Notes: generated by a model from the sequence alone, not told the origin. Positions 36,019-63,833 are shown, counted from the stretch's first letter. The stretch is DNA of 64,000 bases from Candidatus Cloacimonadales bacterium (GCA_963665815.1 OY762463.1:3392001-3456000), one strand, 5' to 3'. Numbers and translations: made by a program.

Positions 36019-36023
36019 AGTAC

Positions 36024-38137: not shown

Positions 38138-38174
38138 TAATTAAAATATGAAGATAAACATAAGCTAAATACGG

Positions 38175-41664: not shown

Positions 41665-41676
41665 TGGATATAATTT

Positions 41677-41955: not shown

Positions 41956-41958
41956 GTT

Positions 41959-42822
41959 ATGAGTATAATTGATAATTTATCAACTTTTGAAAAGATAAAA
42001 CACATAAATGAATACGATGTTGAATTCTGGTATGCAAGAGAGTTTGCTCAAGCACTTGATTATAGTAAATGGGCAAACTTCGAGAACATTATTAAAAAGG
42101 CTAAAATTGCCTGCAAAACCAGTGGTAACGTGGTTTCCGATCATTTTGCCGACGTCGGCAAAATGATAGATCTTCCTAAGGGAGCAGAAAGAGAAATAAA
42201 TGATGTAGCTCTTTCTCGATATGCTTGCTACCTCATTATGCAAGAAGCTGACTCTCGAAAAAAAGTTGTAGCTTTAGGGAAAACTTACTTTGCCATCCAG
42301 ACAAGAAGACAGGAACTTCAGGATGAATTTGAGCAGATTTCCGAAGATAGAAAGAGACTCGCTATTAGAAATGAATTAAAAGAACACAATAAACAATTAG
42401 CTGATGCTGCCCATAAAGCTGGAATTCAAAACAACATAGAATATGCAGTTTTTCAGAATTTTGGATATATGGGACTTTATGGTGGATTGAAAGCAAAAGA
42501 TATTCATAGAAGAAAAGGGTTGAGGAAAAGTCACAAAATTCTCGATTATATGGGAAGCACAGAACTCGCAGCTAATCTTTTCCGGGCTACCCAAACAGAG
42601 GAGAAATTGCGAAGAGATAATATTAAAGGTAAAGATAATGCCAATAAGACTCATTTGGAAATTGGTAAAAAAGTAAGACAAACTATAAAAGAAATTGGTG
42701 GTACAATGCCTGAAGATTTACCAACACCAAAGAAATCAATAATAAAAATACAAAAAGAAAACTGTATCTCCTCCAATGCTCCACAGTCCAAAATCCACTC
42801 CAATGGAGAAACTGATGAATAA
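41959..42822 (+). CDS. dinD: DNA damage-inducible protein D family
   Basis: FWYARE, LSRYACYLI, YFAIQTRRQE, FQNFGYMGLYGG, MGSTELAANLFRATQT, GGTMPEDLPTP. Confidence 0.9.
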   Translation: MSIIDNLSTFEKIKHINEYDVEFWYAREFAQALDYSKWANFENIIKKAKIACKTSGNVVSDHFADVGKMIDLPKGAEREINDVALSRYACYLIMQEADSRKKVVALGKTYFAIQTRRQELQDEFEQISEDRKRLAIRNELKEHNKQLADAAHKAGIQNNIEYAVFQNFGYMGLYGGLKAKDIHRRKGLRKSHKILDYMGSTELAANLFRATQTEEKLRRDNIKGKDNANKTHLEIGKKVRQTIKEIGGTMPEDLPTPKKSIIKIQKENCISSNAPQSKIHSNGETDE

Positions 42823-44002: not shown

Positions 44003-44016
44003 TCCAAGGAGGAATT

Positions 44017-49600: not shown

Positions 49601-49822
49601 GGTAAGGACAAACTAAGAGAACTAGCTGTTGTCTTGTTTGAAAAAGTTCGAAAGAACGCAACAATAGACTGGACAATCAAGGGTAGTGTCAGATCAAAAC
49701 TCAAGGTAATAGTCAAGAGAACTCTCAGACAGTTTGGTTATCCACCGGATATGCAAAAGCTTGCAACCGATACTGTACTTAAACAAGCAGAAAAAATAGC
49801 AGATGAGTTAACAAAAATGTAA
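46604..49822 (+). CDS. hsdR: Type I RM restriction subunit
   Basis: RPDVILFVNGIPLVVIELK, HTQGSGKS, DEAHR, FTGTP, MWLTGFD, QAIARVNR. Confidence 0.95.
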   Translation: MASNIKITETTIENFAIELLEGLGYEYLYGPDLAPEGDRQERQSFEDVLLLDRLENAIRRLNPVSTKEAREDAFKQVLRLNSTELINSNRDFHKLVTEGVNVSVRDNSYERGDYIKLIDFDIVENNEFLVVNQYTIIEDGKNKRPDVILFVNGIPLVVIELKNPAGEKSTVKSAFNQIQNYKKTIPSLFTYNGLIVISDGLEAKAGSLSAGYNRFMSWKTADGKTEASRLVGQMEILIKGMLNKKVLLDLIRHFIVFEQTKKEDYKTKITTIEVVKKLAAYHQYYAVNKAVESTIRAVNLCGDSVRESPAVYNLPNVMNQPKGDRKAGVIWHTQGSGKSLSMVFYSGKIVLKLNNPTILVITDRNDLDDQLFDTFASSQQLLRQVPVQAESREHLKKLLRVSSGGVVFSTIQKFQPEAGNVYERLSNRENIVVVADEAHRTQYGFKARNVDEKDSAGNVIGKKTVYGLAKYLRDALPHASFIGFTGTPIEKTDVNTPKVFGNYIDIYDFAQAIEDKATVPIYYESRLAKVFLSDEGKKLIKELDDRLDKEDMEFSKEVKAKRTKLNALIGSDERVKQVALDIVKHFENRQEVSFGKGMIVTSARWIAAKLYSEIIKLRPEWEHKDLDKGSLKVVMTTSSSDGTKFEKHHTSKSDRKVLSDRMKDADDELKLVIVCDMWLTGFDVPCLHTMYIDKPMKGHNLMQAIARVNRVYKDKPGGLIVDYLGIASDLKRALSFYSENGGKGDPAEAQEQAVKIMLEKLEVVSQLLHGFPYEDYFDADVSRKLSIILEAEEFILQLENGKKRFISEVTALSKAFAIAVPHEEAMDVKEEIAFFQTVKSRLVKFEPKGSGLSDEEMETTIKQVIDQALVSDKVIDVFDAAGIKKPDISILSEEFLLEVKGMKHKNVALEVLKKLLNDEIRIRAKTNIVQSKTLMEMLENAILKYQNKIISAVEVIEELIKMSKEMQNMDREPEEMGLSPFEYAFYSAVANNDSAKELMGKDKLRELAVVLFEKVRKNATIDWTIKGSVRSKLKVIVKRTLRQFGYPPDMQKLATDTVLKQAEKIADELTKM

Positions 49823-49861
49823 ATGCAGAACCTGTTGGTTCTGTTATAGATAGAAGGAGGA

Positions 49862-50506
49862 ATGTTGAAAGGGTTACCGATGAAAGAAAAAAGGAAATTT
49901 GCTAAGAAGTATAATTCTATCAGAAAAATTGTTGCAGGTACATCAGCAATAATAGCAGCTATAGCAACATACAAGTTTATTTTCCATCATACTAAAAGGC
50001 GGAGGTTGATCAAGTATGGAAATATAGTAATAGATATCTATGAAAAACCGCAAACTAAAGAGTTTATAAATTTGATAAAAACTGGAATATTAAACTCAAA
50101 AGATTTGAACTCTGAAGTTGTTTCAGGTTTTAATCACCTTCTTGATAATCTAATTTCATTTGATGTCGATAAATCTTTCCACACACTATGTAAAATATTA
50201 GAGCTTGCATTAAGCCTGCATATTAGAGTAGAAAACAATAGTTTCGAATTTAGTATCAATAAAGCTCAAAAAGAAAGACTGATAACTTGGAAAGAAAGAA
50301 AGAACTTACATAAAATTCGTATTATAAGGAATAAGTTTGTACATCGAATCGGATTTAAAATCGAGTGGCAAGAATTTATTGAGTATTTCCAAGTAGCTTT
50401 CCCAGTGATTTTGAAACTATCAAGAACCGAAGCTACTATTCCGCAGGTAGAAGCTAAACCCCAAAAACTTCTATGCTCCAAAAAGAAAACTAATTGTGAC
50501 ACATAA
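49862..50506 (+). CDS. Membrane-anchored protein with HEPN-like RxxxxH motif
   Basis: N-terminal hydrophobic helix; CKILELAL...LHKIRIIRNKFVH. Confidence 0.5.
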   Translation: MLKGLPMKEKRKFAKKYNSIRKIVAGTSAIIAAIATYKFIFHHTKRRRLIKYGNIVIDIYEKPQTKEFINLIKTGILNSKDLNSEVVSGFNHLLDNLISFDVDKSFHTLCKILELALSLHIRVENNSFEFSINKAQKERLITWKERKNLHKIRIIRNKFVHRIGFKIEWQEFIEYFQVAFPVILKLSRTEATIPQVEAKPQKLLCSKKKTNCDT

Positions 50507-50576
50507 AAACATTGACTTAAAAAGTCATTCTATACAGATTTACTAAAAGAACATAGCAAAAATTGCAACATAACTT

Positions 50577-50742
50577 ATTGGTCAGCTTCAAAAATCGCCA
50601 AATTTAAGTAAGCCACCAGACCAACAGTAAAGTTGCGTCCATTAATATATGGGCGCGCTTTCTAATATCTTGGTGGCTGGTGTTTGGCGATACCTTGAGG
50701 CAAGAGAACGAAAGCGACGCCTTTTCTTCTTTATAGATCAAT
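50577..50742 (+). ncRNA. Putative structured leader RNA (degenerate second copy ~51222-51378)
   Basis: Nested complementary pairs attggtc/gatcaat, gcttca/tgaggc, atcgccaaa/tttggcgat, agccacca/tggtggct, gcgtccat/atgggcgc. Confidence 0.4.
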
Positions 50743-50775
50743 TCGATATGAAAATCAAAATTATAAGGAGGAAAT

Positions 50776-51096
50776 ATGTTCTGTTCACACTGTGGAAGTG
50801 AAATAGTTGATGATGCTGTAATATGTATCAAATGTGGAAGACAAGTCAAAACAATAACCAAGCAAGGCATTGTAAGTGATGAGAAATGGAGTATAGACAA
50901 GTTCGCTGGTCTCATTGCAGCAACTCTGTTAATTCCATATATCGGAGGATTGATAGGTCTAATTTTTGGAATCATGAGTTTAGGATCACCCGGTAAGAAG
51001 AAGCAAGGTATTATTCTAATCTACATTGCTGTCGGAGGATTCATTTTATCATTAACTTTCTGGGCAATGATATTTGGTTTCCTATCTTACTATTGA
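50776..51096 (+). CDS. Zinc-ribbon membrane protein
   Basis: MFCSHCG...CIKCG plus two TM segments; AAGGAGG RBS. Confidence 0.8.
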   Translation: MFCSHCGSEIVDDAVICIKCGRQVKTITKQGIVSDEKWSIDKFAGLIAATLLIPYIGGLIGLIFGIMSLGSPGKKKQGIILIYIAVGGFILSLTFWAMIFGFLSYY

Positions 51097-51409
51097 TTTT
51101 AAGGTAATTTCAGAACTAACATACATCTGCAAGCAGTTTTACAGACTAAATGTAACACTATATATATTATGATTCAAATTAATAATCATAGTGTAAGATA
51201 CTTAAAATTGTAACACACACATATTGATCTGCTTCTAAATCGCCAAACTAATGTAAGCCGTTGGATCAAGAGTCAAACTACATCTATTATAATGAATGCA
51301 GTTTGGTTAAAACTAACTGATATGAGGGTTTTAAAAGCATTAGGTTTAAGGCAATTCTTTCTTCAAAGTAGATCAATAGATTTATGATCAGGAGATCAAA
51401 GGAGGAAAA

Positions 51410-51847
51410 ATGAGAAATTTAAAGCTTTTGCTGATTTTAATTTTGTCAATATTTTGCATATTTGGTTGCTCATCCAAGAGAGTTCGAGTTGTAAAGAGAG
51501 GTACAATCCCAGGATATGACCAAACAACAATAAAGAAAGCTTTCGAAGCAGTATTTGATAATCCTAAATGGACAGAAGAAGTAACTTCTAATGGAACGGT
51601 ATTTGTCGAATTTACTGGGAACATCTCCAAAGTATTTAGACGTACAATATCTAAAGATAGAGATGGTACCGGTAGTATAATGATGGCATTAGACTCCAAA
51701 TTATGTGAAGTAGGCAAAGAGGTAACTGCTCAATGGACATTTGCTTCGGATAGAAAATCTTTTCGTTTGAGCTACATAAACAGTGATGCTTTTAGAGGTT
51801 TAGATATCCCTTGTATACTCGACATGATTTACTATGGGAAAATGTAA
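51410..51847 (+). CDS. Hypothetical lipoprotein
   Basis: AAGGAGG RBS; lipobox IFGC. Confidence 0.7.
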   Translation: MRNLKLLLILILSIFCIFGCSSKRVRVVKRGTIPGYDQTTIKKAFEAVFDNPKWTEEVTSNGTVFVEFTGNISKVFRRTISKDRDGTGSIMMALDSKLCEVGKEVTAQWTFASDRKSFRLSYINSDAFRGLDIPCILDMIYYGKM

Positions 51848-51884
51848 CATGATTGATGCAAATAATAATATAGTAACTTAAAAC

Positions 51885-51918
51885 ATAGCGTAAGATAGTT
51901 TCAACTATCTTACGCTAT
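51885..51918. terminator. Bidirectional terminator-like hairpin between convergent genes
   Basis: atagcgtaagatagtt-tc-aactatcttacgctat, perfect 16-bp inverted repeat. Confidence 0.75.
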
Positions 51919-51919
51919 T

Positions 51920-52519
51920 TCATAATATCCTATCCAAATTAACATACACTTCGTCAATCTGATCTTGAGTAATTCCGATATATCTTAGTGTCACATCTTG
52001 TGATGAATGATTGAATATCCGCATTAGTAAACTGAGATCAACACCATTTTTGTAAGCATGATACCCAAAGGTCTTTCTTAATGTGTGCGTACCTATCTTT
52101 GACCGAATTCCTGAACGATAAGCATAATCGTTCAGGAACTGCCAGACGTATTGTCGGGTCCAAGAATTTTTCGATCCAGACACACTATTGGATTTTGACT
52201 TGAACAGGAAATCCATTTCCTCTGGTTTAACATTCTTGTACAATTCCAGAATACTTTTTTTAACATTATCAGAAAATCTGAATTGCCTACTCTTTTTCGT
52301 TTTCTTTTCTTTTATAGTTATTGATAGTCTGAAAGTCGGATCCTTACCCAAATCTGAAAAAATATCATTCCAAGTTAATCTCAGAATATCAGAAATTCGC
52401 AATCCTGTTTTTATACCAATTTCGAATAGAGTTAATTCTCGGATCTTATTTTCCTTTTTCATTAGCTTTTTCATTTTACTAAGTTTCCGGAGATCTTTGA
52501 TTGGTTCTACATAGTTCAT
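51920..52519 (-). CDS. Short (catalytic-domain-only) tyrosine recombinase
   Basis: TGLRISD, EKKTKK, HTLRKTFGYH, FNHSS..VTLRYIG. Confidence 0.92.
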   Translation of the reverse strand: MNYVEPIKDLRKLSKMKKLMKKENKIRELTLFEIGIKTGLRISDILRLTWNDIFSDLGKDPTFRLSITIKEKKTKKSRQFRFSDNVKKSILELYKNVKPEEMDFLFKSKSNSVSGSKNSWTRQYVWQFLNDYAYRSGIRSKIGTHTLRKTFGYHAYKNGVDLSLLMRIFNHSSQDVTLRYIGITQDQIDEVYVNLDRIL

Positions 52520-52718
52520 ATAGTTGTCCTTTATTTTACTTAATGAGTTGTATGGCTCTATTTGTAATGCAAAACGGATTAACAGTTGATCCTGTTAATC
52601 CGTATATATGTTATAACTATAAGAATAATATGTAGTTAACTTTCTTTTATTTACTTTACACAAAATGATTGAGGAAAGGAGAAGAGCATTTCATAAATGA
52701 CGGTTATGAATAAGTGCT

Positions 52719-52756
52719 AAAAAAATAGGCATCACTATGAAAGTCGATGCCTATTT
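52719..52756 (-). terminator. Intrinsic terminator closing the decarboxylase-tyrS-orf93 unit
   Basis: aaataggcatc...gatgcctattt stem preceded by an A-run. Confidence 0.7.
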
Positions 52757-52767
52757 AAGATATTAGG

Positions 52768-53049
52768 TTACTTAAATAATTTTAGATTCAAGTTCTTCTC
52801 TAAATCAAGATACTCGTAAGTTTCATTCTTTTGAAGCGGAGTTCTTACGTCATGAGTTCCCATCGGAGTATAAAGCGGTTTATATTCTCTGAGAGGATTT
52901 ACTTGCTCATTCATTATGTAATCCTGAGAATAGTTTGGTCTTAACTGTTGATGATAAAGATTATCAACTCTGAATTGTCCTTGATCAATGCGTCTTGAGA
53001 AATCAAGTTGCCTTTGTTGTGATTGATTATAGAAAAAACTCTCACTCAT
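52768..53049 (-). CDS. Hypothetical Q/N/Y-rich small protein
   Basis: AGGAG RBS right after the tyrS stop; followed by a terminator. Confidence 0.65.
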   Translation of the reverse strand: MSESFFYNQSQQRQLDFSRRIDQGQFRVDNLYHQQLRPNYSQDYIMNEQVNPLREYKPLYTPMGTHDVRTPLQKNETYEYLDLEKNLNLKLFK

Positions 53050-53059
53050 TTCATTCTCC

Positions 53060-54352
53060 TTAGCTTAATTTAAGCATAATATAGTTTTTTTTTCCTTTTC
53101 TGACTACAACAACTTTCTTATCTATTATTGATTTGTTAAAAAGCTCATTGTAGTTGCCTGTGTTAGCTTTGACGTTATTGATGTAGAAACCACCATTTTT
53201 TACCAATCTTCTAAATTCACCATTTGAAGAAAAAATTCCTGATTTTGTAAAAGAAAATGCAATATCTGATTGCTGTTCAATCTCCCTTCTACTAATTGTG
53301 TAGATTGGGATTTGATCAAAAATGCGTAGTAATTCATCGTCAGTAAACTCACTTATATCTCCACCAAACAATGCTTTTGATGCTCTAAGAACTTTATTAA
53401 GTTCATCTACGCCATGAATCAGTTCAGTCATTGATTTTGCCAATTCTTTTTGAGCATACCTTTTTTCCGGAGCTTGCTTGTGTATTAACATAACTTGTTC
53501 AATATTTTCGAGCGTGGAAAAAGTGAAGTACTTCAAAAAATCCTCTACATCAGTATCCTCAACGTTGATCCAATACTGATAAAACTCATAAGGAGTAGTC
53601 ATGCTCTTATCAAGCCATATGGCATTTCCCATAGATTTACCAATTTTCTCACCATCTTTTGTTGTTATCAACGGTGATGTACAGCCATATACTTGTTGAT
53701 TAGATATTTTGTGTGTTAGAGCTATACCTGCTAATATATTTCCCCATTGATCGTTACCACCAATTTGCACATTTACTCCATATTTTTTGTTCAAGTAGTA
53801 GAAGTCATAGGCTTGCATTGTTTGATATGAAAACTCGGTAAATGTTATTCCATTCTCGGAGTTCAACCTTTTCTTTACACTTTCTTTGGCTAGCATATTG
53901 CTTAATTTGAAATGTTTACCAACATCTCTTAACCAGTCAACAAAGGTTATACTCCCAATCCAGTCATTATTGCGAACAATCTTTGTCTTGTTCTCTGAAT
54001 TGGGATTGATAATTGCCCTAATTTGTGTTTGTAATGATTTTACATTATTGTCTACAGTTTCCTTTGTGAGAAGAGATCTTTCGGATATCCTTCCTGATGG
54101 ATCTCCAATCATGCCTGTCGCATCACCAATCAGAACTATTGTTTTGAGTCCTCTATCCTTATACCTTTTGAGAGTCAATATTGAAAGAAGATGCCCTGTA
54201 TGAAGGCTAGGACCTGTAGGATCTACACCTACATATATTACAGGATTTTCATTTTCAATTATTTCATCCAATTTCTCGTATGAAACTTGTGCAAGCAGTC
54301 CTCTGAGTTCTAATTCTTTTAAGATTGATAAATCACATTTATGCTGATTCAT
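53060..54352 (-). CDS. tyrS: Tyrosine--tRNA ligase (island-borne)
   Basis: YVGVDPTGPSLHTGH, IGDPSGR, EFSYQTMQAYDF, QIGGNDQWGNI, KIGKS, C-terminal S4-like domain; start moved to MNQH after a GGAGA RBS. Confidence 0.93.
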   Translation of the reverse strand: MNQHKCDLSILKELELRGLLAQVSYEKLDEIIENENPVIYVGVDPTGPSLHTGHLLSILTLKRYKDRGLKTIVLIGDATGMIGDPSGRISERSLLTKETVDNNVKSLQTQIRAIINPNSENKTKIVRNNDWIGSITFVDWLRDVGKHFKLSNMLAKESVKKRLNSENGITFTEFSYQTMQAYDFYYLNKKYGVNVQIGGNDQWGNILAGIALTHKISNQQVYGCTSPLITTKDGEKIGKSMGNAIWLDKSMTTPYEFYQYWINVEDTDVEDFLKYFTFSTLENIEQVMLIHKQAPEKRYAQKELAKSMTELIHGVDELNKVLRASKALFGGDISEFTDDELLRIFDQIPIYTISRREIEQQSDIAFSFTKSGIFSSNGEFRRLVKNGGFYINNVKANTGNYNELFNKSIIDKKVVVVRKGKKNYIMLKLS

Positions 54353-56342
54353 TTTGTTCTCCTTCATTGAAAAAATGAGTTATTGGTGAGATTTCATCGA
54401 CCTGTTTTGACGAGTCTATACCTGAATAGTATTCCTCTTTAAGCTTCTTCAAGTAGTCACAAAAAGCATCAAAGACATGCTTTTTCTCTTCACCTTCTAC
54501 TACATATGAATTAATTGCATGAGGATGCATTATGCACGTCCTGAAGTATTTTTTACCATTCATAGTAGTTTCTACGACAGAGAATCGTTTACATCCATTC
54601 ACGGGGTGCATTTTCTTTAGCATTAACTCAGTTAGATGTTCGTTATTTTGCCATCGGTATGTTAGTATGTTGCTCTGGGGAGAATTAACAACCATCCCAT
54701 CTATTTCCTTAAGTTTTCTATATAAAAGGTTCGCAGCAATGATAGATGAGCAAACATCTTTACCTAAACCTTCTTGATTTAGAGGTTTAGAAACTAATGA
54801 AAAATAAAGCGAAATCGCACTTGCACCTGGTCTGCTTCCTTCAAGAGAAAACATTCCAGTAGGTAATTTAGCTTCTTTCTGAGTCCAGAGGTAGTCTGCA
54901 TTAGACGCAATATGCATAAGAGATCTCTTGTCTTTATACAATACGACTGACGATGGGTATGGAATGTATGTTGCTTTGTGAGGATCATATGTAATTGCAT
55001 CAACATCTTTCAATGCATTAGCCTTTTTCAGAATTCTGTCTGTAAAAAAAAGGCATTCATTTTGTATCTTATTGGAATCACTGGACGAAAAGCCGTGACT
55101 AACAGCTATTTGCCTAAAATAATTCTCTAATTGGCTTTGAGAAACAAGTTTTCCTTGTTTGTCTCGTAAAGCAGCAACAAAACTGATACCATAAGCTCCA
55201 TCAACAATTGTAAAAAAGCTAATGCCATGATTTTCTTCTAATTCATTTCTGAGTAATATAATAGCTTCAATGTCATCAAAGTTTGAATTCTCAGTTGTTC
55301 CAAAAATTCCAATGCAACCCATTATCCAAGACTCACTATTAATTATTATTTTTTTTACCTTATTTAAATCAATCGCATCATTTGTATCATTTTCAACTAA
55401 AATGAGACTTTCAGATCCAGAAGATCTCATTTTCAATGCTTTAACTATACTATAGTGTGCTGATTCAGATACTATGAACTTCCAAGAATTGTTCATTACT
55501 GTAAGGGAATCGGGAAAAGCTTTCTTGCATTTACATCTAAAAGCAAACTCACCAATGTAGTTCAGTAAATATGGAGATAGTATTTTATTAGTGATTCTAA
55601 CAACGTTTTTTGATTCATTATGAGCAATAATTTGGGAGGATAGCCTGATTAAGTCTTCCTTGATACAATTCTTCTGATTTATCGGTAAATTGATAAGTTC
55701 ATGAAATGATAATTCTGAGAACTGCTTGTTTTCTCCCCAAGCATTTGTTACGAAGTAATTATGTTTCCAATGTGAGATAAATCTTGAATGTAACTCGTTA
55801 TCTACTTCTATTGTCTCGTTTTTAATTGCTAATGAAACTGATAAGGGAAATGTCTGAATATTTGTTGCGACATGAATAGAACTCATCATTCCTGTTGTTC
55901 CTCCAGTTGTAAGGTTTCCATGAGCTGTGGAAGGATTATAACCTACTAGTTTTATAGCTTCAATGATGCAATACTCTTCACACTTGCTTGAAACGGGTGA
56001 ACTTACACTATCTACTAGGTTTTCATTAACTGTCATGCCTATCATTCCACCCATTAGTGATTCAGGACTCAATCTTGAATTCATATGTGCTAAGTATCTA
56101 GTTGATTGAAAGACTGGTGTTAATTGAAAAATGTCCTTGATTACTTGATATTGCTTATGATTAATGGGTTCTCTTCGAGGTTTTAAGTCGTTTGTGTCTA
56201 ATGGAAATTGCTGACGTTGTTTTGCAAGAAGTTCATCAATAGTATTTTGAAGATTGTTGCAAATACTTGTTACTGTCCTATAATAGGACTCATCGTAACC
56301 ATCTTTTGACTCTTCTGATGTCGGTGCATCGATACGTTCCAT
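54339..56342 (-). CDS. Group II PLP-dependent decarboxylase, tyrosine-decarboxylase-like
   Basis: RYLAHMNS, SSPVSS..EE, HYSIVKA, GTTE...D, VDGAYG, DPHK..YIPY, LEGSRPGA; stop overlaps the tyrS start. Confidence 0.8.
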   Translation of the reverse strand: MERIDAPTSEESKDGYDESYYRTVTSICNNLQNTIDELLAKQRQQFPLDTNDLKPRREPINHKQYQVIKDIFQLTPVFQSTRYLAHMNSRLSPESLMGGMIGMTVNENLVDSVSSPVSSKCEEYCIIEAIKLVGYNPSTAHGNLTTGGTTGMMSSIHVATNIQTFPLSVSLAIKNETIEVDNELHSRFISHWKHNYFVTNAWGENKQFSELSFHELINLPINQKNCIKEDLIRLSSQIIAHNESKNVVRITNKILSPYLLNYIGEFAFRCKCKKAFPDSLTVMNNSWKFIVSESAHYSIVKALKMRSSGSESLILVENDTNDAIDLNKVKKIIINSESWIMGCIGIFGTTENSNFDDIEAIILLRNELEENHGISFFTIVDGAYGISFVAALRDKQGKLVSQSQLENYFRQIAVSHGFSSSDSNKIQNECLFFTDRILKKANALKDVDAITYDPHKATYIPYPSSVVLYKDKRSLMHIASNADYLWTQKEAKLPTGMFSLEGSRPGASAISLYFSLVSKPLNQEGLGKDVCSSIIAANLLYRKLKEIDGMVVNSPQSNILTYRWQNNEHLTELMLKKMHPVNGCKRFSVVETTMNGKKYFRTCIMHPHAINSYVVEGEEKKHVFDAFCDYLKKLKEEYYSGIDSSKQVDEISPITHFFNEGEQNESA

Positions 56343-56708
56343 AGTATCCTCCATATTTAATTTGACACAGAAAACAGATCCCCTATAATTGTTTCGACTA
56401 GAACTACAGGGTTGGTTTCTTAGGAAACTGGCTCTGTTTTTGTGCTTTAACTAGAAAATATTCAGTATGAAGTTAATGTCAAGATAAAAAAACTCAAAAT
56501 ACATAAAAAAATATTCAAAAAAACATCACGAATAATTGGGTTGACTCTTTGCCTGTTGCCTTACGCGCTTTTAAAAAGCTCACAGTAACGATATTCTAGA
56601 TACTTTTAAATAAAATTTTTAACATTTTATACACAATCTCCGAAATATTTACATTATTCTTGACAAACTACTCATAAAAGTTTCAATTTGCATGAAAGGA
56701 GATTACTA

Positions 56709-58439
56709 TTGAGTGATTTTATTGATATAAAAGAATTCCTGAAACAACAAAAAGATAAGAGGAAAAGCTTTTCGATTGAAGAGTTAGCAAAGGAATTAAA
56801 AGCACAAGAAGATTTAGTAAAAAAAGAAATAGAGTCAAATATTCATGAATTTCAGATTGTATATGATCGAAGTGGAAAAGAAAAATATAAACTTGCCAAA
56901 GAAAAAACGAGTTTAGAAAAAGTACAAGAATTTTTGGTCAAGAATAGGCTAAAGTACTACACAAAGGATGAAATAGCCAAGCATACAGGCGTTGCTGGTG
57001 CGACCATGAATACTCTTTATGAAAGAAACCCCAATATGTTCGAAGTAAATAAAGTAAAGGCAAACAGTAAAACAAAACCGATAAATACTTATAAACTAAG
57101 AATTAAGAAAGCAGGGGAAATAATTGGACCTGGGGATTTTGGCTTCATCAAAAAAAACGATTTTAAGAAAGTTGATAAACTGACAAGCCCTGATAGTATT
57201 ATGGGAAATAGATTCGTTTCAATTGTTGGTGGAGTAAAAACAGGGAAAACTTCATTAGGTAATTATTATATTCAGAAATTTTGTGAAATTTTGCCTGAGT
57301 ACAAAGTTGTTGAAATAGATTTTGAAACTTTAATAAATTATTCAAATGCTGAAAGCGATATTAGTAAAACTGATGTGAAAGATGAGAGGGAACAAGGGCA
57401 CAGGTTAACATCATTGAAGTTGTTTTATGAAAATCTGCTATTGATAATACATGAGCAGATTTCAGACATAAAGATGACTATCAGATACTCGAAAGATAGA
57501 AAAAAAGCTGCTGTTGCTTGGGTAAACAAACTCAAATTGTATGGTTACAATTTTGAGGGTAATATGTTACAGGTTAATGAACCTTTCAATGAATTAAAGA
57601 TTGCTATAGGTGATGATGATAAAATGCCTTTACCGGATTCTTTGAGTGAAGTTCTGCAAATAGTATTGGAGCTGGATGATATAAAGAACGAAATTGCTCC
57701 AAAACTTGAACTTCCTGATTTTAAAAACGATGACTTATGTGCTCAAGATCTCATATATCAAGCATTAAACAAGTTTATTGCATTGATGATGAACGAGAGA
57801 TTCAATTTGTTCGTTTTCGATTGCATGGGGGCTGAGACGACTACAAACCAAAAGAATAATAGAGCTTTTAATTATGTGCAAGATAATTTCCTACATTTCC
57901 TTAGGGGAGTATACAACATGCAGTCTCATGCTGCACTAAGATACACAAAGTTCTTGTATATACTAACTGCAGAAAACGATTTAAGTGATGTATCTGTGTT
58001 CATGAAAACTCATAATAGTTGTATTAGACAACATGCTTTCAGTAAAGATAATGTAAAACATTTACTAGAAACAATGTGTATTGAAGATGAAGAATTTGTC
58101 ATTTCAGATTTAATTCATAAAAGTTTTTTGGGGCAGTGTTTTCTTACGCAATATTTTGTCCAGCATAGATCCAATGAACTTTTTGACTTAACTGAGCAGA
58201 AATTGTATTCATTGATGGATGATTTGCTATCTGAGACACCAATTATTCATTACTTCAGTAGAATTGATGATTTATTTAAGGATTTCTTTAAGGGTGACTC
58301 AATTTCTCAGGTGGATTTAAGTAATGTAAAAAAGAAAATGTTTTTGATGCAGAATAGTTTGATTAACGAGAAAGGGGAAAAGAGCTTATTTTATGAAATA
58401 CTTCTTAAAAATTTGAAAAAGGAGAATGCTGATGGATAA
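56709..58439 (+). CDS. Tandem wHTH-like N-terminus plus AAA_35/STAND-like P-loop ATPase
   Basis: FSIEELAKEL and YTKDEIAKHTGV (HTH-like); Walker A GGVKTGKT; Walker-B-like LFVFDC; TTG start after AAGGAG. Confidence 0.65.
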   Translation: MSDFIDIKEFLKQQKDKRKSFSIEELAKELKAQEDLVKKEIESNIHEFQIVYDRSGKEKYKLAKEKTSLEKVQEFLVKNRLKYYTKDEIAKHTGVAGATMNTLYERNPNMFEVNKVKANSKTKPINTYKLRIKKAGEIIGPGDFGFIKKNDFKKVDKLTSPDSIMGNRFVSIVGGVKTGKTSLGNYYIQKFCEILPEYKVVEIDFETLINYSNAESDISKTDVKDEREQGHRLTSLKLFYENLLLIIHEQISDIKMTIRYSKDRKKAAVAWVNKLKLYGYNFEGNMLQVNEPFNELKIAIGDDDKMPLPDSLSEVLQIVLELDDIKNEIAPKLELPDFKNDDLCAQDLIYQALNKFIALMMNERFNLFVFDCMGAETTTNQKNNRAFNYVQDNFLHFLRGVYNMQSHAALRYTKFLYILTAENDLSDVSVFMKTHNSCIRQHAFSKDNVKHLLETMCIEDEEFVISDLIHKSFLGQCFLTQYFVQHRSNELFDLTEQKLYSLMDDLLSETPIIHYFSRIDDLFKDFFKGDSISQVDLSNVKKKMFLMQNSLINEKGEKSLFYEILLKNLKKENADG

Positions 58440-60681
58440 ATGTTTTGCTGATGGAGGATGTGTTGACAAGAGCAGACATATTTATGCTAGAAGAAAAGAA
58501 GATGTTAAACTTAAGGAATTGATTATTGATGATTGCAGTACCGTTTATGTTAATGGACCTAGAGCTGTTGGGAAATCAAGCTTAGTAAGAAGTGTAACTG
58601 ACGACTCAAATGAAGTAATTACAATCAATGTTGATTTAAGATTTTATTCTCGTAAGGAGTATACACCGGAAAACTGGTTCCTCATGTTGTTTCAAGCAAT
58701 TGATAGTAGTCTTAGTTTTGTTCTTCCAAATTTTAGGCATGGTGAAGTAATAAATTGGTTCAGAACATACAGTAGTGAATACTCATCACAAGCTAATTAT
58801 CTTCTTGATTTCTTTAAGTTGTTTATAAGGGGTGAAAAGAACATTAAAAGAAAATTTGTGATTGTGTTTGATGAAGTCGATGTGATTCAATCTAATGGAT
58901 ATCACACAGATAACTTTCTAACGGGAATCGTTTTACTTAATAAGGAGTTACAGAATCTTAACTTGTCTCAAGTTTTGATATCCATAAGTCACCCGATGTT
59001 CTTAGTTAGGGAGTTAAAGTACTCAGATATTAAGATAGGTACAAGGATAATTGTGAATGATTTTGAGAACATTGACGAGATAACAATGAAGGATTGGGCT
59101 GAGGGGTTATTTAACATTAATGAGGAATCTAGACTGAAATTAACAAAAGAGATTATTGAGTACACAGGGGGACATCCATATATTTCAGGTATAATTGGCA
59201 ATATTATAAATTCTGAATATTCTGGTAATATTGAAAATAACACTCTAAAAAAAATTATTGATCAATTCATTACTGATCAGAAGAGCTCATCAAATATTAA
59301 TCCTCATTTTGAAGCTCCAAGAGATTTCATTTTGATGAGACCTAGTTTGGCATATGAGGTACTCGACTTTTATGAGCAGGTTATTGCTGTTGATGGGTAT
59401 ATTGATCTAGATATAGAGAAAAAAACAGCAAATGATCCCAAACTAATTATTGCCGTATTGTCTATAACTGGGCTTGTAAGAAGACACTATTCTGGTCAGT
59501 ATAAGTGCAGAAGTTATATTTATAGGCGAATTTTCAATGATAAGTGGGTAGGTAACACTAAATCTCATCTTGGAAGTCGATTATTTTCAGGTAACGTATT
59601 GGCTTCGCACAAAAGGTCTGACCTACCCAAAATTGGATTAATTAATTGTGGTGGAACATTAGGTATGACAGAGCATGATGGAAAAATTCAAGCACCTTCA
59701 AATGAAGAGGAGTTTTATAGAATGTTCCCTTCATTAAGTCATATGGCAGATGTAAGACTTATACCATTCAGGATCAAAGATGGTGCAAACATGTTTATCG
59801 AGGATTATAGTGAGTTAGCTAAGCATATTTATTTAAGAAGAGATGATGGTTTTGATGCTTTTATAATAATGCATGGAACTGACACTTTAACATACACTGC
59901 ATCAGGTGTTGCATTTGCTTTGGGCAAAGGTTTAAATTGTCCAGTAGTCTTTGTTGCAAGTCAAGCCCCTGTTTCAGTTAGATATGGTGATGCTGAAATT
60001 AATCTTAAACGTGCTTTTGCAGTTGCCACAATGAAGATAAATGAAGTAGTCATATGTTTTAATGATTCTGTTTTTAGGGCTGTTAGAACCGAGAAATTGT
60101 CAGACTATAGATTTAATGGGTTTCACTCACCTACATATCCTGCTATTGCTACAATTAGCGAGAAGATAGAGTTAAGTGAAAAATGGTCATCTGAAAATGA
60201 AACAAATAAATCGAGTGCTCCTGAGTATATGTTAAATAATGAGTTTGAACCTAATATCCTACAGATAGTACAATATCCTGGAATAAATCCTAAGAATTAC
60301 GAGGATATTGTGTTTAGTTGTGGAAGTAAAGTTAAAGCGATTATTATTCAGAGTTTAGGTTTGGGTAATCTACCAACAATGGGTGAGTATAATTTTCTTC
60401 CATTTATAAGTAGGGCTGTTTCAAAAAATATTCCGGTTGTTATTACTAGTAAATATCCAATTCTGCCGGAGTTTGTTGAGAAATATATCCCTGCTAGTAG
60501 ACCGGTCCAATCAGGAGCTATACATGCAGGAAATATGACTCCATCTGCTGCTCTTACAAAATTATCTTGGATTTTAAAAGGGATATATAAAGAAGTAGAA
60601 ATAGGAATCACTAAAGTGGAAAATTTAATACGAGTTGTAGAGAGAAAAATGAAAACAAATTATATTGGAGAATTAGATTAA
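58432..60681 (+). CDS. AAA_35/STAND-like ATPase fused to type I L-asparaginase
   Basis: GG......YARRKED, GPRAVGKSS, VIVFDEVD, TGGHPY, IYRRIFNDKWV; then CGGTLGM, HGTDT, PVVFVASQ, GLGNLP, MTPSAALTKL. Confidence 0.85.
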   Translation: MDKCFADGGCVDKSRHIYARRKEDVKLKELIIDDCSTVYVNGPRAVGKSSLVRSVTDDSNEVITINVDLRFYSRKEYTPENWFLMLFQAIDSSLSFVLPNFRHGEVINWFRTYSSEYSSQANYLLDFFKLFIRGEKNIKRKFVIVFDEVDVIQSNGYHTDNFLTGIVLLNKELQNLNLSQVLISISHPMFLVRELKYSDIKIGTRIIVNDFENIDEITMKDWAEGLFNINEESRLKLTKEIIEYTGGHPYISGIIGNIINSEYSGNIENNTLKKIIDQFITDQKSSSNINPHFEAPRDFILMRPSLAYEVLDFYEQVIAVDGYIDLDIEKKTANDPKLIIAVLSITGLVRRHYSGQYKCRSYIYRRIFNDKWVGNTKSHLGSRLFSGNVLASHKRSDLPKIGLINCGGTLGMTEHDGKIQAPSNEEEFYRMFPSLSHMADVRLIPFRIKDGANMFIEDYSELAKHIYLRRDDGFDAFIIMHGTDTLTYTASGVAFALGKGLNCPVVFVASQAPVSVRYGDAEINLKRAFAVATMKINEVVICFNDSVFRAVRTEKLSDYRFNGFHSPTYPAIATISEKIELSEKWSSENETNKSSAPEYMLNNEFEPNILQIVQYPGINPKNYEDIVFSCGSKVKAIIIQSLGLGNLPTMGEYNFLPFISRAVSKNIPVVITSKYPILPEFVEKYIPASRPVQSGAIHAGNMTPSAALTKLSWILKGIYKEVEIGITKVENLIRVVERKMKTNYIGELD

Positions 60682-60695
60682 TAAAGGAGATTAAT

Positions 60696-62192
60696 ATGTC
60701 AAAGGAAGTATTTAAAACAGGATATGATAAGGCAAACAAAGGAAAAGGAGTGCTTGTTATATATACGGGTGGTACTATTGGATCAATGCCTAAGGATCCT
60801 AAAGATCCTGATAGTCCACAAGTCGTAGTCGGTTGGGAAAAATACAAGGAACTTACTCCGCAGATACATGAGGAATACATCGGATTCAATGTTGATGCCT
60901 ATAGTACTGAACCGTTAGATAGTTGTAATGTTGGTCCTGTCATATGGAAAGAGATAGCAATGGTTATCAAAGAATCATATGATAAATATGAAGGATTTGT
61001 CATTCTTCATGGCACAGACACAATGGTTTATACCGCAAGTGCATTAAGCTTCATGTTGAATAATCTTGGTAAACCCGTAGTTATAACTGGTGCTCAAATG
61101 GCATACCTGTTTAATGTAAGAAATGATGGGTTTCAGAACATGATATCAGCTTTGCAAATTGCAAATCCAAAATTTTCTGGTATACCAGTTATTCCAGAAG
61201 TTACACTCTATTTTAATGGAAAATTGCTCAGAGGTAATAGAGCGAGGAAAATTAATGCATCTGGATTTAACGCATATATTTCTGCAAACTATCCACCATT
61301 GGCAACAATAGGTGAAAGTATTGTTGTTGATGAGAAGTTGATACGAGAAAAGAGCAAGTTGTCTTTTAATGCAAAAACAAGAATGGAAACTGGTGTTGTG
61401 GCTATTAATTTTTTCCCTGGTATTCAGGATGGAAAAGTGCTTGAGAGAATACTCTCTGACCCAAGTTTAAAAGGGGTTGTTTTAATGGCTTATGGTGCTG
61501 GAAACATTCCAACCGACAAAAAAGTTCTGGACTTGATCAAGAAAACGACTGATCGAGGAGTAGTTGTATTGGATGTAACGCAATGTGGTGGTGGAAAGGT
61601 AGAACTTGGAATGTATGAGACTAGTGCTCTTTTATTGGACGTTGGTGTAGTTAGCGGAATAGATATAACTCCTGAAGCAGCACTCACTAAGTTAATGTAT
61701 TTACTTGCAGATGAAGATGATAGTCCTCATGCTATTGCGCTTAAGGTAGAAAGGGATTTGGCGGGAGAACAAAGTATGAGCATATATACTGCTGAGTTTA
61801 AATCATCGGGAACTTGCAGTGTTGATTCAACTATGAATAGAAGCAGAATTCCTGCTGCAAATATTGAAGGTACTTGGAATAATAATGATATTGAACGGAT
61901 AATGTTGCGTTTTAGAAATGGCGTGATAAGTAATCCTAATATAGATGAGTATGCAAAAATTAAACTATTTATGGATATTAGTTCAGATGATGATCTTGAT
62001 GAAAACAGTGTTAATTATTTAGGATGCTTCAACAGATTACAAAATGATGATCCAACTATTTTATTCTTTGATATAACAGATAAGGCAAAAGAAATATTAG
62101 CAAAAAGAGCTTCTATTACTGTAGTAATGGATTCAGAAACCGCTTCGTTTACTTGGGAAAAGGCTGAACTAACTATTTTTGTGAAAAGTTAA
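60696..62192 (+). CDS. Type I L-asparaginase/glutaminase family with ~130-aa C-terminal extension
   Basis: IYTGGTIGS, LDS, HGTDTMVYTASALSF, TGAQ, RGNRARK, YGAGN, TQC, DITPEAALTKL. Confidence 0.9.
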   Translation: MSKEVFKTGYDKANKGKGVLVIYTGGTIGSMPKDPKDPDSPQVVVGWEKYKELTPQIHEEYIGFNVDAYSTEPLDSCNVGPVIWKEIAMVIKESYDKYEGFVILHGTDTMVYTASALSFMLNNLGKPVVITGAQMAYLFNVRNDGFQNMISALQIANPKFSGIPVIPEVTLYFNGKLLRGNRARKINASGFNAYISANYPPLATIGESIVVDEKLIREKSKLSFNAKTRMETGVVAINFFPGIQDGKVLERILSDPSLKGVVLMAYGAGNIPTDKKVLDLIKKTTDRGVVVLDVTQCGGGKVELGMYETSALLLDVGVVSGIDITPEAALTKLMYLLADEDDSPHAIALKVERDLAGEQSMSIYTAEFKSSGTCSVDSTMNRSRIPAANIEGTWNNNDIERIMLRFRNGVISNPNIDEYAKIKLFMDISSDDDLDENSVNYLGCFNRLQNDDPTILFFDITDKAKEILAKRASITVVMDSETASFTWEKAELTIFVKS

Positions 62193-62196
62193 TGAT

Positions 62197-62222
62197 GGGT
62201 AAGTTTTCTTACCCCTTTTTTT
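62197..62222 (+). terminator. Intrinsic terminator-like hairpin before the last gene
   Basis: gggtaag-tttt-cttaccc-c-ttttttt. Confidence 0.65.
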
Positions 62223-62230
62223 GAGGAAAT

Positions 62231-63592
62231 GTGAAGAAATATACAAAGCTAGATTACAATAAAGCTAATATGAGAAGTAATTCAGAGTTTGATGAAGAAA
62301 TCCCGTCAAATGTAAAAGTTATTGAAAGCTTATTCAGCCAATACCGGAAAGGATTTAAGTTTTCAAGGAATGCTTATGCAGGAAGTTGCAGGGATGCTAG
62401 ATCAAAGCGTTATAGACTTGGGAATCGTGGTATTCCTCTTAGCGATGAGCTAAAGTCAATAATTGGTAAAGTTGTAAATCACAAGCAGATTACCTATGTT
62501 GCCTTACATTGCAGGGGGGATATGGAAATCTGTGTTGATAACATAATTGACGTTTTGAATATCGAAGGTGAGTTTGCTGTATTAAACGCAGATGAGCTTT
62601 TTGCTGTTTTCAATATGGAATACGGTACGGTTAACCCTTTTGTCCTATCGAGCTCGGAAACGGAAAGCATAAACCAAATTTTTGATTCAAGAGTGTTTGA
62701 GCAACATGTGAAGCTTCCCGGAACAATGATGACTAATGCCGGAGATCATACTTGGGCTATAGAGTTTGATCCTCTTGATTTAAAGGTATTGATTCCTGAT
62801 ATGGTTGTTGCGAAGATCGCAGAGATAAATCAGGCTACTGAGGACTACGAAGAATTGTCTAGATTAAATCTACGATCTATTGGTTTAATTACCGGAAATG
62901 GTCCAGATTCCGGAATGGCTCTGTGGCAACTGATTAATGATAATGTAAAAGAGATAATGAGTGATAAATTTCTTGGTGACTTATCATTACCGGAAGTAAA
63001 TGTGCTTTCGGTTCCGGGAATGGGGCTATCCATGGAATTGAAACTAAGAAAGAGTGCAACTTGGAGAGAATTATCAAGAGCTGTTGAAACTCTTTGTAAT
63101 CATGGTGTTGATATTCTATGTCTAGCTTGTCATACTACTCACTACTTCTCAGATCAGATTAAAGAGATTTGTAAAAAGTATGGAGTTACTTTTCTTTCTA
63201 TGCCGGAAGTTGTTGTATCATACCTTCAGAAAAAAAAGATTACAGAATTCGCCTTATTAGGGATACCGTCGGTTGCAGACCTTGGTGAATGGAGTGCATA
63301 TTCTACTTTGAATAAGTATAATCCTGAAATTTTGGATTCTGAAACTCTTGATTCTTTTCTAGAAATAGGTTACCTAGTTAAGCAGAAACAGCCATTTGAA
63401 AAAAGCTTCCAGAAACTTATACACTTAATAAAGAAAAAGATAAAATCTGAAAATGTTATTATTGCCTTAACAGAGTTATCAATATTGCTGCAAAAGCAAT
63501 CTAATAAAAAACGAAGAAGAAACATTATTGATGCTCTTGAGCTTTATGGAGAGGCTATTGCAAAAGCTTCTTTAGGCCTAAAATGGCATTAA
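62231..63592 (+). CDS. YbaK/ProX-like aminoacyl-tRNA editing domain fused to an Asp/Glu racemase-family domain
   Basis: ELKS, GTVNPF, TNAGD..WAIEF (YbaK); IGLITGNGP, LACHTTHYF, IIALTELS (racemase fold, second Cys replaced). Confidence 0.7.
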   Translation: MKKYTKLDYNKANMRSNSEFDEEIPSNVKVIESLFSQYRKGFKFSRNAYAGSCRDARSKRYRLGNRGIPLSDELKSIIGKVVNHKQITYVALHCRGDMEICVDNIIDVLNIEGEFAVLNADELFAVFNMEYGTVNPFVLSSSETESINQIFDSRVFEQHVKLPGTMMTNAGDHTWAIEFDPLDLKVLIPDMVVAKIAEINQATEDYEELSRLNLRSIGLITGNGPDSGMALWQLINDNVKEIMSDKFLGDLSLPEVNVLSVPGMGLSMELKLRKSATWRELSRAVETLCNHGVDILCLACHTTHYFSDQIKEICKKYGVTFLSMPEVVVSYLQKKKITEFALLGIPSVADLGEWSAYSTLNKYNPEILDSETLDSFLEIGYLVKQKQPFEKSFQKLIHLIKKKIKSENVIIALTELSILLQKQSNKKRRRNIIDALELYGEAIAKASLGLKWH

Positions 63593-63603
63593 ACAATTAA
63601 CTA

Positions 63604-63634
63604 AGTACAAGTTGGAGTTGTTCCAACTTGTACT
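63604..63634. terminator. Hairpin after the last island gene
   Basis: agtacaagttgga-gttgt-tccaacttgtact, perfect 13-bp stem. Confidence 0.6.
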
Positions 63635-63770
63635 CTCCATGAGCGGTAAAACAAACCAATTACATCAGTTTCCCACACATAATTTCATTAAAACTGTCCG
63701 TTAAACGTCCGTCGGTATGATGGGTCAATTGATAATTACCTGAAAGGTATAGGGTTAGAATACATAATAA

Positions 63771-63833
63771 CCCTCCTAAGGAAAAGGTCGTGCGTTTCCC
63801 GATCCATCGGACGCCGGGGGTACCATACAAAAC
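63771..63833 (+). repeat. attR-like tRNA-Arg 3'-half remnant with modified T-loop
   Basis: 26-bp identity to tRNA 31572-31597, then tcccgatccatcgga, then cgccgggggt-acca. Confidence 0.9.

Follow-up and report, generated by a model that had tools for sequence, protein, structure and literature searches.

The stretch analysed here, referred to as the window, comprises 64,000 nucleotides (nt) from a Candidatus Cloacimonadales bacterium (GCA_963665815.1 OY762463.1:3392001-3456000) and carries four consecutive genes, termed A, B, C and D, with the appearance of a so far undescribed system of immune type whose target is the supply of amino acids. Judged from its sequence, the A-B-C-D operon may represent the ATPase-gated, "type 1" form of a widespread and undescribed family of conflict modules that collapse the supply of asparagine and aminoacyl-tRNA, a reading to which a probability of roughly 0.35 is assigned. 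The proposed family would act against phages or mobile elements by abortive infection, with a core of one or two type I asparaginases together with D. That the operon serves in some form of genetic conflict has better than even odds, because it is mobile, its spread is patchy and crosses domains of life, A evolves fast, and its parts are repeatedly wired to TIR, KAP, cyclase, FGE-sulfatase and STAND modules. The genes are as follows.

56688 to 58439, plus strand: gene A, open reading frame (ORF) of 583 amino acids
58426 to 60681, plus strand: gene B, ORF of 751 amino acids
60696 to 62192, plus strand: gene C, ORF of 498 amino acids
62231 to 63592, plus strand: gene D, ORF of 453 amino acids

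These are four real, co-oriented and tightly packed ORFs, with an overlap of 14 nt between A and B, a gap of 14 nt between B and C and one of 38 nt between C and D. An earlier reading made from the DNA alone (the sequence-only reading) had proposed four co-oriented, closely coupled genes, and the ORFs were found where it had placed them. Gene A has an alternative TTG start at 56709 that is preceded by AAAGGAG. A scan of the four proteins against PADLOC-DB v2.0.0 gave no significant system match and only matches at the level of the P-loop (mad8 at E 0.015; PDC-S01 at E 2e-4 over 40 residues).

The two asparaginases are the best defined parts of the operon. B ends in a type I asparaginase domain (residues 402-719, nt 59629-60582) that scores 140.2 bits against Pfam Asparaginase (PF00710) and 50.8 bits against Asparaginase_C (PF17763). 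Its catalytic motifs are CGGT (T409), HGTDT at 481-485 and K555, with G407-T409, G482-D484 and K555 invariant in seven homologues; the whole protein scores 168.9 bits on the asnASE_I model, under the cut-off of 260.5. On the same model (NCBIfam, TIGR00519) C reaches 269 bits and lies above the cut-off. The asparaginase of C occupies residues 17-358 and contains TGGT (T24-T27), HGTDT at 105-109 and K185. The TGGT nucleophile motif is invariant in the alignments of the B and C families, and the motif table has TGGT, HGTD and the lysine retained in all nine B-type and all four C-type domains. By motif comparison, then, B and C keep the full set of catalytic asparaginase motifs. C matches AnsA structures at E 1e-87, and its structural model, with a predicted local distance difference test (pLDDT) score of 79.8, has a two-domain asparaginase fold that superposes on 5dnc_A (Z 35.8, root-mean-square deviation (rmsd) 2.7, 325 residues) and on 2ocd_A (Z 34.1). 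Pfam and the motif table agree with the earlier description of B as an AAA_35-like ATPase joined to a type I asparaginase with intact GGT, HGTDT and lysine motifs. C had been described as a stand-alone asparaginase with an extra C-terminal domain, and its 269-bit match and about 140 additional residues bear this out. An unrooted tree of 32 asparaginase domains separates plain, B, C and TIR-fused groups, with support of 95/89 for the C group and 100/99 for each of the others, and places C with the TIR-fused copies at 100/97.

The additional domain of C (residues 361-498, nt 61776-62189) forms a beta-jelly-roll when modelled alone, with a pLDDT of 93.5. Its nearest folds come from latent tyrosinases and polyphenol oxidases, where they form the C-terminal domain; against 7xio it gives Z 12.2 with rmsd 4.4 over 130 residues and a Foldseek E of 1.3e-5. 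The modelled tail is also like TGF-beta-type prodomains, BcsB and carbohydrate-binding modules, and the likeness shows a common fold rather than a function. A V4R domain was considered for this tail and found neither as a Pfam call nor as a fold match.

D combines a YbaK/ProX-like domain (residues about 40-205, nt 62348-62845) with an Asp/Glu-racemase-like domain (residues about 215-449, nt 62873-63577). Homologues of D exceed both Pfam cut-offs, those for tRNA_edit with scores of 42.4, 33.8, 32.5 and 29.8 bits at loci L180, L188, L173 and L175. The racemase-like part matches a CuyB-type family in NCBIfam at E 3.9e-17, and a D profile finds racemases in the PDB, with 3ojc at E 4.3e-13 followed by 2zsk, 5ell, 5hqt and 1jfl. 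No PDB match is obtained with a single sequence of the YbaK part. When an N-terminal profile of 27 sequences is used, its four best PDB matches are YbaK/ProX proteins, all weak, with 1dbu the best at E 0.007. The alignment to 1dbu begins at YbaK K46, which is paired with an invariant lysine of D; K46 of Haemophilus influenzae YbaK is a conserved lysine, which we take to be functionally important. Of the 38 D proteins compared, 37 have the YbaK lysine motif DELKS; there is also a conserved Y/F-G-x-V-N/T-P motif. The second racemase cysteine (GCTE motif) is absent from all 38 D proteins, being replaced by leucine or methionine, or by serine in L202. At the position of the first (ACNT), cysteine is found in 27, the window D included, alanine in eight, aspartate in two and asparagine in one. 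A role for D as a working aspartate racemase is therefore rejected, since the second catalytic cysteine is missing from every D protein and the first from 11 of the 38, and the earlier suggestion that this domain diverts aspartate to D-aspartate finds no support. What survives of the proposed YbaK-racemase fusion is the homology of both halves, without the catalytic pair of the racemase.

A profile search of 1.84 billion representative proteins places 263 proteins in the D family at E<=1e-30. Of 15 unusually long members that were looked at, P0063 and P0156 are single chains containing an asparaginase together with D or its YbaK-like part, while P0031 adds PALP and P0016 adds PP2C.

The fusion of AAA_35 to an asparaginase is rare. 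Only six other full-length proteins were found in a word-based search of 5.8 billion proteins, and the fusion is absent from 40 genomes of the same order, in which matches span the asparaginase part only. An alignment-based scan with B located 16 genomic loci (L009-L024) and the metagenome loci L089 and L090. Searches by tblastn for B, C and D covered 19 of 156 loci; 14 of these loci have all three genes in the same order and on the same strand, another four are truncated at contig ends and consistent with it, and L107 differs. Upstream of B, in all 16 loci, lies a co-oriented gene for a nucleoside triphosphatase (NTPase) of 403-652 amino acids, and these upstream proteins form one family. A scan with the D profile adds the type-1 loci L160, L163, L178 and L192, with the order B-D-C in L163 and L178. 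All told, some 20 loci hold the operon and represent at least seven phyla, one archaeon among them (Acidobacteriota, Pseudomonadota, Chloroflexota, Aminicenantes, Actinomycetota, Bacteroidota and a Thermoplasmatota archaeon); the window C and its archaeal counterpart are 66% identical. The genome search for the ATPase-asparaginase fusion that the sequence-only reading had called for thus finds the operon conserved across phyla.

Of the 48 loci found with the D profile, 34 were on new contigs. An asparaginase adjoins D in 28 of these 34, and two of the remaining six are short contigs. Pfam domains were assigned to 236 ORFs from 25 of the 34 loci, with nine short or near-duplicate loci left out. 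On this comparison of gene content, the constant core is the asparaginase, or asparaginases, plus D. Two further layouts surround it. In type 2, a plain asparaginase is followed by a TIR-asparaginase-tail protein and then D (L173, L180, L181 and L194); the TIR match lies above the cut-off in L161 and L167 and below it in L175. In type 3, a protein that couples a variable domain to FGE-sulfatase precedes a plain asparaginase and D (L169, L179, L189, L191 and L199). The variable domain is KAP in L193 and TIR in L202, and a Guanylate_cyc match is present in the N-termini of L169 and L179. PADLOC identifies a neighbour in L173 as ThsA (656.8 bits), the TIR-FGE-sulfatase protein of L202 as SpbK-like (130.8 bits) and the KAP protein of L193 as QatA-like (119.7 bits); the same scan of the asparaginase and D homologues gave no match. 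Neighbours of the related loci include ThsA, a Pycsar-type TIR, RES, PIN, integrases, type IV secretion system genes and ArdC. Outside the window, then, the core is linked to ThsB-like, SpbK-like and QatA-like proteins and to an adjoining ThsA gene, which fits the defence setting first proposed.

Genes A and B encode the putative switch. A contains a P-loop NTPase with Walker A GGVKTGKTS at residue 181 (GKT 186-188), Walker B LFVFDC at 374 (hhhhD 374-378) and a GQCFLTQ motif at 482. Its N-terminus has been assigned as follows.

About residues 10 to 140 of A: two weakly similar helix-turn-helix (HTH)-like units, internal repeat at E 0.004

The Walker motifs uphold the ATPase half of the earlier description of A, and the winged-HTH-like repeats of the other half come down to a sub-threshold HTH_6 match together with this weak repeat in the first 140 residues. 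Pfam assigns no family to the window A. Against a profile of its 16 positional homologues A gives a weak match (20.1 bits, E 1.3e-8 in a search of one target), and it can be aligned with the upstream-protein family at Walker A, Walker B and the G-QP-LT motif; the Walker A lysine is present in 13 of 17 family members. ESM Atlas neighbours of A belong to AAA_16, KAP, NB-ARC and ATPase_2 clusters, that is, STAND/ORC-type, at a score of 0.94 that is to be read as a lead only. Among 14 relatives of A that were scanned, AAA_35 is found in seven (five above the 27-bit cut-off), TIR in two (L009 and L015) and a sub-threshold HTH in three; PADLOC scores the A protein of L009 as ThsB-like at 143 bits. 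HTH-type N-termini are found in the window, L013, L022 and L024. B begins with an AAA_35 NTPase (30.8 bits against the Pfam cut-off of 27; residues 13-256, nt 58462-59193) followed by a helical linker, with G47 and K48 of Walker A and D147 and E148 of Walker B invariant in seven homologues.

A survey of 45 ORFs from 15 metagenome loci that match the N-terminus of B only places this pair in a wider setting. In these loci gene 1 encodes an N-terminal domain followed by AAA_35, the domain being TIR in five loci, CHAT-TIR in three, Mrr-TIR in one and Trans_reg_C in four. Gene 2 encodes AAA_35 followed by a C-terminal module, which is WD40 in six loci and TPR, CHASE2 or a beta-propeller in one each. 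By domain architecture, A and B belong to this general and recurrent two-gene AAA_35 module of the switch type, whose predicted effector or output is on the N-terminus of gene 1 and whose predicted sensor is on gene 2. The earlier proposal of a tandem STAND-like ATPase pair acting as a switch is thereby strengthened, given a module that recurs with TIR, CHAT-TIR, Mrr-TIR or winged HTH on one side and WD40, TPR or CHASE2 on the other. Two side observations concern this module. In L126, L133 and L142, Trans_reg_C-AAA_35 and AAA_35-WD40 pairs are divergent to a conserved three-gene set with an animal-haem-peroxidase-like protein, an arrangement that looks like a regulator with its target operon. 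In L120 (5857-8970), a fused glycyl-tRNA synthetase alpha-beta gene of 1037 amino acids lies 2 nt past the AAA_35-propeller gene of a TIR-AAA_35 pair, and may be a housekeeping gene.

The operon lies at the right end of a 32.2-kb island, whose two junctions are given below.

31542 to 31618, plus strand: tRNA-Arg(CCT), left island junction (ARAGORN); same-genus synteny stops at 31619
about 63771 to 63818, plus strand: imperfect direct repeat of the tRNA-Arg 3' half, right junction (26 nt exact plus CGCCGGGGGT)

The right junction lies approximately 180 bp past the stop codon of D. In G001, a genome of the same genus, identity to window 28000-31619 is 91% and stops with the final base of tRNA-Arg(CCT), and the sequence that comes next in G001 matches the window from 63771 onward. 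A search of G001 gave no match to window 31620-51600 or 51600-63770. The operon is on a tRNA-integrated mobile island that is absent from the same-genus genome. A type I restriction-modification locus (39493-49822) encodes HsdM fused to an endonuclease-like DUF559 domain, HsdS and HsdR; its unusual inserts, placed between hsdM/hsdS and hsdR, are a Bro-N gene and the gene of an AAA-like ATPase of the TrlF family (865 amino acids, 521 bits). The synteny break, the tRNA repeat and this locus all support the earlier picture of a tRNA-integrated island with restriction-modification cargo. The first island gene past the tRNA encodes a 914-residue product with a weak match to a DUF294 nucleotidyltransferase-like domain, and a Rad52/22-family gene is nearby (32309-35053 and 36275-37123). 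No full-length integrase was seen on the island, the only candidate being an integrase-domain ORF of 199 amino acids at 51920-52519. Beyond the right junction, L203 carries a perfect 30-bp tandem repeat of 4.9 copies (1011-1157, equivalent to about 64011-64157 of the window), and at the corresponding site of G001 a unit of roughly 178 bp is repeated five times in tandem. About 4 kb past the window end, just outside the island and after a BNR protein with a type IX secretion tail, L203 (5072-10000) encodes a type ISP restriction-modification enzyme of 1642 amino acids (Mrr_cat_2, helicase, methylase and Type_ISP_C). By itself that secretion tail would point to a Bacteroidota host, and a Legionella-type origin was set aside.

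From gene content, gene order, motifs, fusions and genomic context, we infer the trigger, assembly, substrates and physiological outcome of the proposed system as follows. A and B would form a hetero-oligomeric STAND-like NTPase switch in which A supplies an HTH-type N-terminus, or a TIR domain in some relatives. A trigger would lead to nucleotide-dependent assembly of A and B. The active sites of asparaginases form only across a dimer interface, and assembly may unite the asparaginase domain of B with C. D would serve as a YbaK/ProX-like aminoacyl-ester hydrolase that removes from tRNA an amino acid of the amide or acidic kind, asparagine or glutamine being the simplest choice; its racemase-like domain would have kept an amino-acid pocket and lost two-base racemase chemistry. 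The asparaginases would then destroy the released and the free amino acid, so that tRNA charging collapses and translation stops, and the beta-jelly-roll tail of C could be a ligand-binding domain or a latency lid. Since 12 of the 14 A proteins have no TIR domain, any output enzyme of type 1 must be B, C or D. An effector that acts on amino acids and aminoacyl-tRNA is favoured for type 1 because B, C and D are its sole enzymes and their catalytic residues appear to be kept.

Upstream of A is a second, divergent operon that the sequence-only reading had missed, consisting of a decarboxylase-like gene and an additional tyrosyl-tRNA synthetase gene, both possible accessories.

56355 to 56687, no strand: AT-rich divergent intergenic region of 333 bp between gene A and the decarboxylase/synthetase operon
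54339 to 56354, minus strand: pyridoxal-phosphate decarboxylase-like gene, group II, 671 amino acids (Pfam Pyridoxal_deC 55.7 bits)
53060 to 54367, minus strand: extra tyrosyl-tRNA synthetase (TIGR00234, 387.6 bits), overlapping the decarboxylase gene by 29 nt

The intergenic region presumably holds the promoters of both operons. Operator-like repeats were sought in its 333 bp and none was convincing, only short imperfect repeats being present. The best family for the decarboxylase is tyrosine decarboxylase (tyr_de_CO2_Ent), at 149 bits far under the cut-off of 905, and no close relatives were found in genome contigs. A second tyrosyl-tRNA synthetase, 28% identical, is encoded elsewhere in the genome. 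This kind of pairing, a synthetase beside an enzyme acting on its amino acid, occurs in four of the 19 type-1 loci scanned, the window included. In L018, a lysyl-tRNA synthetase stands with a Lys/Orn/Arg decarboxylase-like gene, and in L022, a seryl-tRNA synthetase with a serine ammonia-lyase-like gene. L013 (3979-5541) has a prolyl-tRNA synthetase without the editing insertion (profile positions about 220-405) together with a proline-hydroxylase-like gene, its neighbour being typed as a "nonproteinogenic amino acid hydroxylase"; the same genome also has a full-length prolyl-tRNA synthetase (588 bits). Each synthetase is an additional genome copy in all four cases tested, the second lysyl-tRNA synthetase being present as fragments only. 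As a rough estimate that assumes synthetases to be ~0.6% of genes, ~0.8 would be expected among the ~124 flanking ORFs. The remaining D loci that were scanned, 21 in number, have no synthetase. Genes met repeatedly next to the core encode decarboxylases of three unrelated families, DAO oxidases, class IV aminotransferases and EamA exporters, along with a Ser dehydratase-like protein and hydroxylases. The pairing of a synthetase with an amino-acid destroyer is a second rule that calls for explanation.

Several observations weigh against the proposal that type 1 kills by amino-acid depletion. In terms of the general AAA_35 module, the effector slot of the window pair is occupied by the HTH-like region of A and the sensor slot by the asparaginase of B. 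The idea of an asparaginase effector is not accepted outright because the B domain fills the sensor slot. Most A proteins have HTH-type N-termini, as transcription regulators do, and a word-based search found no homologues of A, leaving it without independent sequence homology. The plain asparaginases of types 2 and 3 have HGTNT in all 13 cases (MGTNT in L198). Those fused to TIR have HG[TA]NT or QGVNT, with asparagine for aspartate in seven of seven and the threonine also lost in four of the seven. Taken at face value, these substitutions suggest that the asparaginase of the TIR- and FGE-sulfatase-linked variants may sense or regulate rather than kill. The window D falls under both Pfam cut-offs (tRNA_edit, PF04073, 24.6 against 25.5 bits; Asp_Glu_race, PF01177, 27.3 against 31 bits). 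At the type-1 loci L009, L014, L016 and L021, there are no mobile or defence neighbours, and in L186 (Actinoplanes) and L188 (Winogradskya) D stands without an asparaginase beside condensation-adenylation-carrier modules of non-ribosomal peptide synthetases (NRPS). Finally, extra synthetases would offset starvation for phage and host alike. As a whole, the sequence-only reading stands in its ATPase switch and its island, with the operon conserved across phyla, and is not supported in the racemase route to D-aspartate; its asparaginase is a candidate effector to be weighed against the sensor-slot position and the HGTNT variants elsewhere.

Another kind of conflict system, based on signalling, is rather unlikely and deserves the most attention among the alternatives. 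Here the asparaginase, or asparaginases, and D would make, convert or degrade an amino-acid-derived messenger, and the outputs would be TIR, cyclase, KAP or the HTH of A. The racemase-like pocket of D would be the receptor, and an aminoacyl- or acyl-ribose ester, such as a conjugate of an amino acid with ADP-ribose, would be the substrate that its YbaK domain hydrolyses. An asparaginase in the sensor slot agrees with such a scheme, and the HGTNT and HGANT variants suit altered chemistry or binding only. Domains that make signals are tied to the core in the form of TIR-asparaginase proteins (L173, L180, L181, L194, L161 and L167) and Guanylate_cyc-FGE-sulfatase proteins (L169 and L179), with ThsA beside L173. 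The accessible part of one source proposes that an asparaginase makes, from asparagine or a different amide, a messenger that can diffuse (10.64898/2026.10.19.760177), and that of another describes TIR domains that can attach ADP-ribose to a free amino acid, such as His-ADPR (10.64898/2025.12.03.692087). However, a TIR, a cyclase or a recognised receptor-effector is lacking from the window operon and from most type-1 loci, Pfam reported no V4R in the four window proteins, the tail of C being a beta-jelly-roll, and aspartate and glutamate are abundant and thus poor signals. We also know of no chemistry of this kind for YbaK domains, which counts further against a messenger.

It is unlikely that the operon has no immune role and that A and B are a STAND-type pair of transcriptional regulators, which would sense amino-acid status through the asparaginase domain of B and control amino-acid catabolism and back-up tRNA charging on the island, that is, the decarboxylase and tyrosyl-tRNA synthetase operon, C and D. 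The HTH-type N-termini of A in the window, L013, L022 and L024 argue for such a role, as does the divergent layout, which suits a regulator with its target operon and recalls the Trans_reg_C-AAA_35 pairs divergent to the conserved peroxidase operon in L126, L133 and L142. Neighbours at L014, L160 and L178 are metabolic, and in the tyramine cluster of Enterococcus durans, tyrS is induced by a lack of tyrosine according to the accessible portion of its description (PMC3315439). Yet TIR, CHAT, KAP and cyclase versions of the modules fit housekeeping regulation poorly, and the island is missing from a sister species, the distribution is patchy and cross-domain, and A evolves very fast. A third alternative, a role in making a non-proteinogenic amino acid or antimetabolite or in shielding the cell from it, in which D would clear mischarged tRNAs, the asparaginases and their neighbours would make or destroy the analogue and the extra synthetases would be discriminating, resistant copies, draws on D alone beside NRPS modules (L186 and L188), the additional synthetase copies in four of four genomes, the prolyl-tRNA synthetase of L013 that lacks its editing insertion next to a gene of the "nonproteinogenic amino acid hydroxylase" type, the EamA exporters in L160, L185, L189 and L191 and the D-PALP fusion P0031, but is quite improbable given that it leaves the ATPase, TIR, KAP and cyclase partners and the two paralogous asparaginases unexplained and that no biosynthetic core enzyme is conserved across loci.

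Returning to the depletion system, its architecture can be set against what is already described. Like other two-gene AAA_35/STAND modules, A and B are adjacent, translationally coupled NTPases with Walker A and B motifs, and the relatives of A carry TIR or HTH; in contrast to those modules, gene 2 ends not in WD40 or TPR but in an asparaginase that is catalytically intact by its motifs, C and D always come next, and the window A has no recognised effector domain. The archaeal GatDE Glu-tRNA(Gln) amidotransferase also has an asparaginase-family subunit, GatD, in a tRNA-bound complex of solved structure, and the model of C superposes on 2d6f_B with Z 31.4 and rmsd 3.2 over 325 residues. However, on GatD models B and C reach 142-182 bits, far under the cut-offs of 310-324, type I asparaginase models score higher, and there is no GatE partner. 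The YbaK/ProX trans-editing deacylases provide the best PDB matches of the D N-terminal profile, from which D differs in that the match is weak (E 0.007) and in its racemase-like fusion and its asparaginase linkage. To our knowledge, and in the literature searched, no YbaK protein has been placed in an asparaginase or racemase-like context. Among translation-directed toxins, which occur in toxin-antitoxin and defence systems, toxSAS enzymes reportedly block the CCA end of tRNA. By analogy, the depletion system would share with toxSAS-type toxins the supply of charged tRNA as its target and would differ in relying on deacylation and amino-acid destruction rather than on tRNA modification or cleavage.

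The nearest published idea is a prediction of V4R-asparaginase conflict systems, in which [TIR/HEPN/2TM/ParA]-V4R proteins are accompanied by a separate asparaginase, as set out in the accessible part of 10.64898/2026.10.19.760177. In both cases an asparaginase-family gene is tied to TIR-type effectors in predicted immune loci, whereas in the present family the asparaginase forms a fusion with AAA_35 or TIR and has D as its constant partner, and Pfam calls no V4R at E<=0.1 in A-D, a threshold that a divergent V4R domain could escape. In the portion of its main text that is accessible, the words YbaK and racemase are absent, and FGS, which we take to be the FGE-sulfatase domain, is listed among the ligand-binding domains known from conflict systems. 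Asparaginase, YbaK, racemase and tRNA are likewise absent from the accessible main text of a survey of TIR systems (10.64898/2025.12.03.692087). The Enterococcus durans tyramine cluster, so far as its description (PMC3315439) is accessible, shares a decarboxylase-like gene with an extra tyrosyl-tRNA synthetase, to which the lysine, serine and proline pairs are analogous; the window pair differs in flanking an ATPase/asparaginase/YbaK operon on mobile DNA, with no transporter or antiporter gene seen. Within PADLOC-DB and the literature searched, some of it accessible only in part, there is no description of the A-B-C-D architecture, that V4R-asparaginase prediction being the nearest. The earlier statement that no described system with an asparaginase effector was known is in keeping with this, as PADLOC and the same literature yielded no equivalent.

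Bacterial immune effectors known so far act by depleting NAD+, nucleotides or ATP, or by cutting nucleic acids and membranes. If the depletion reading is true, amino-acid and aminoacyl-tRNA metabolism would join the list of bacterial immune targets, a first function would be available for ~260 clusters of YbaK-racemase-like proteins, and the TIR-asparaginase fusions would be explained. The components are small, soluble and readily assayed. It is possible, though doubtful, that the family represents a new class of immune effector in which hydrolysis of aminoacyl-tRNA is combined with irreversible destruction of the amino acid by a heteromeric asparaginase, gated by a STAND-like switch or by TIR, KAP or cyclase sensors. 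As part of that same tentative reading, the effector may sometimes be reinforced by cassettes of an amino-acid destroyer and an extra synthetase, and would amount to nutritional immunity inside the bacterial cell.

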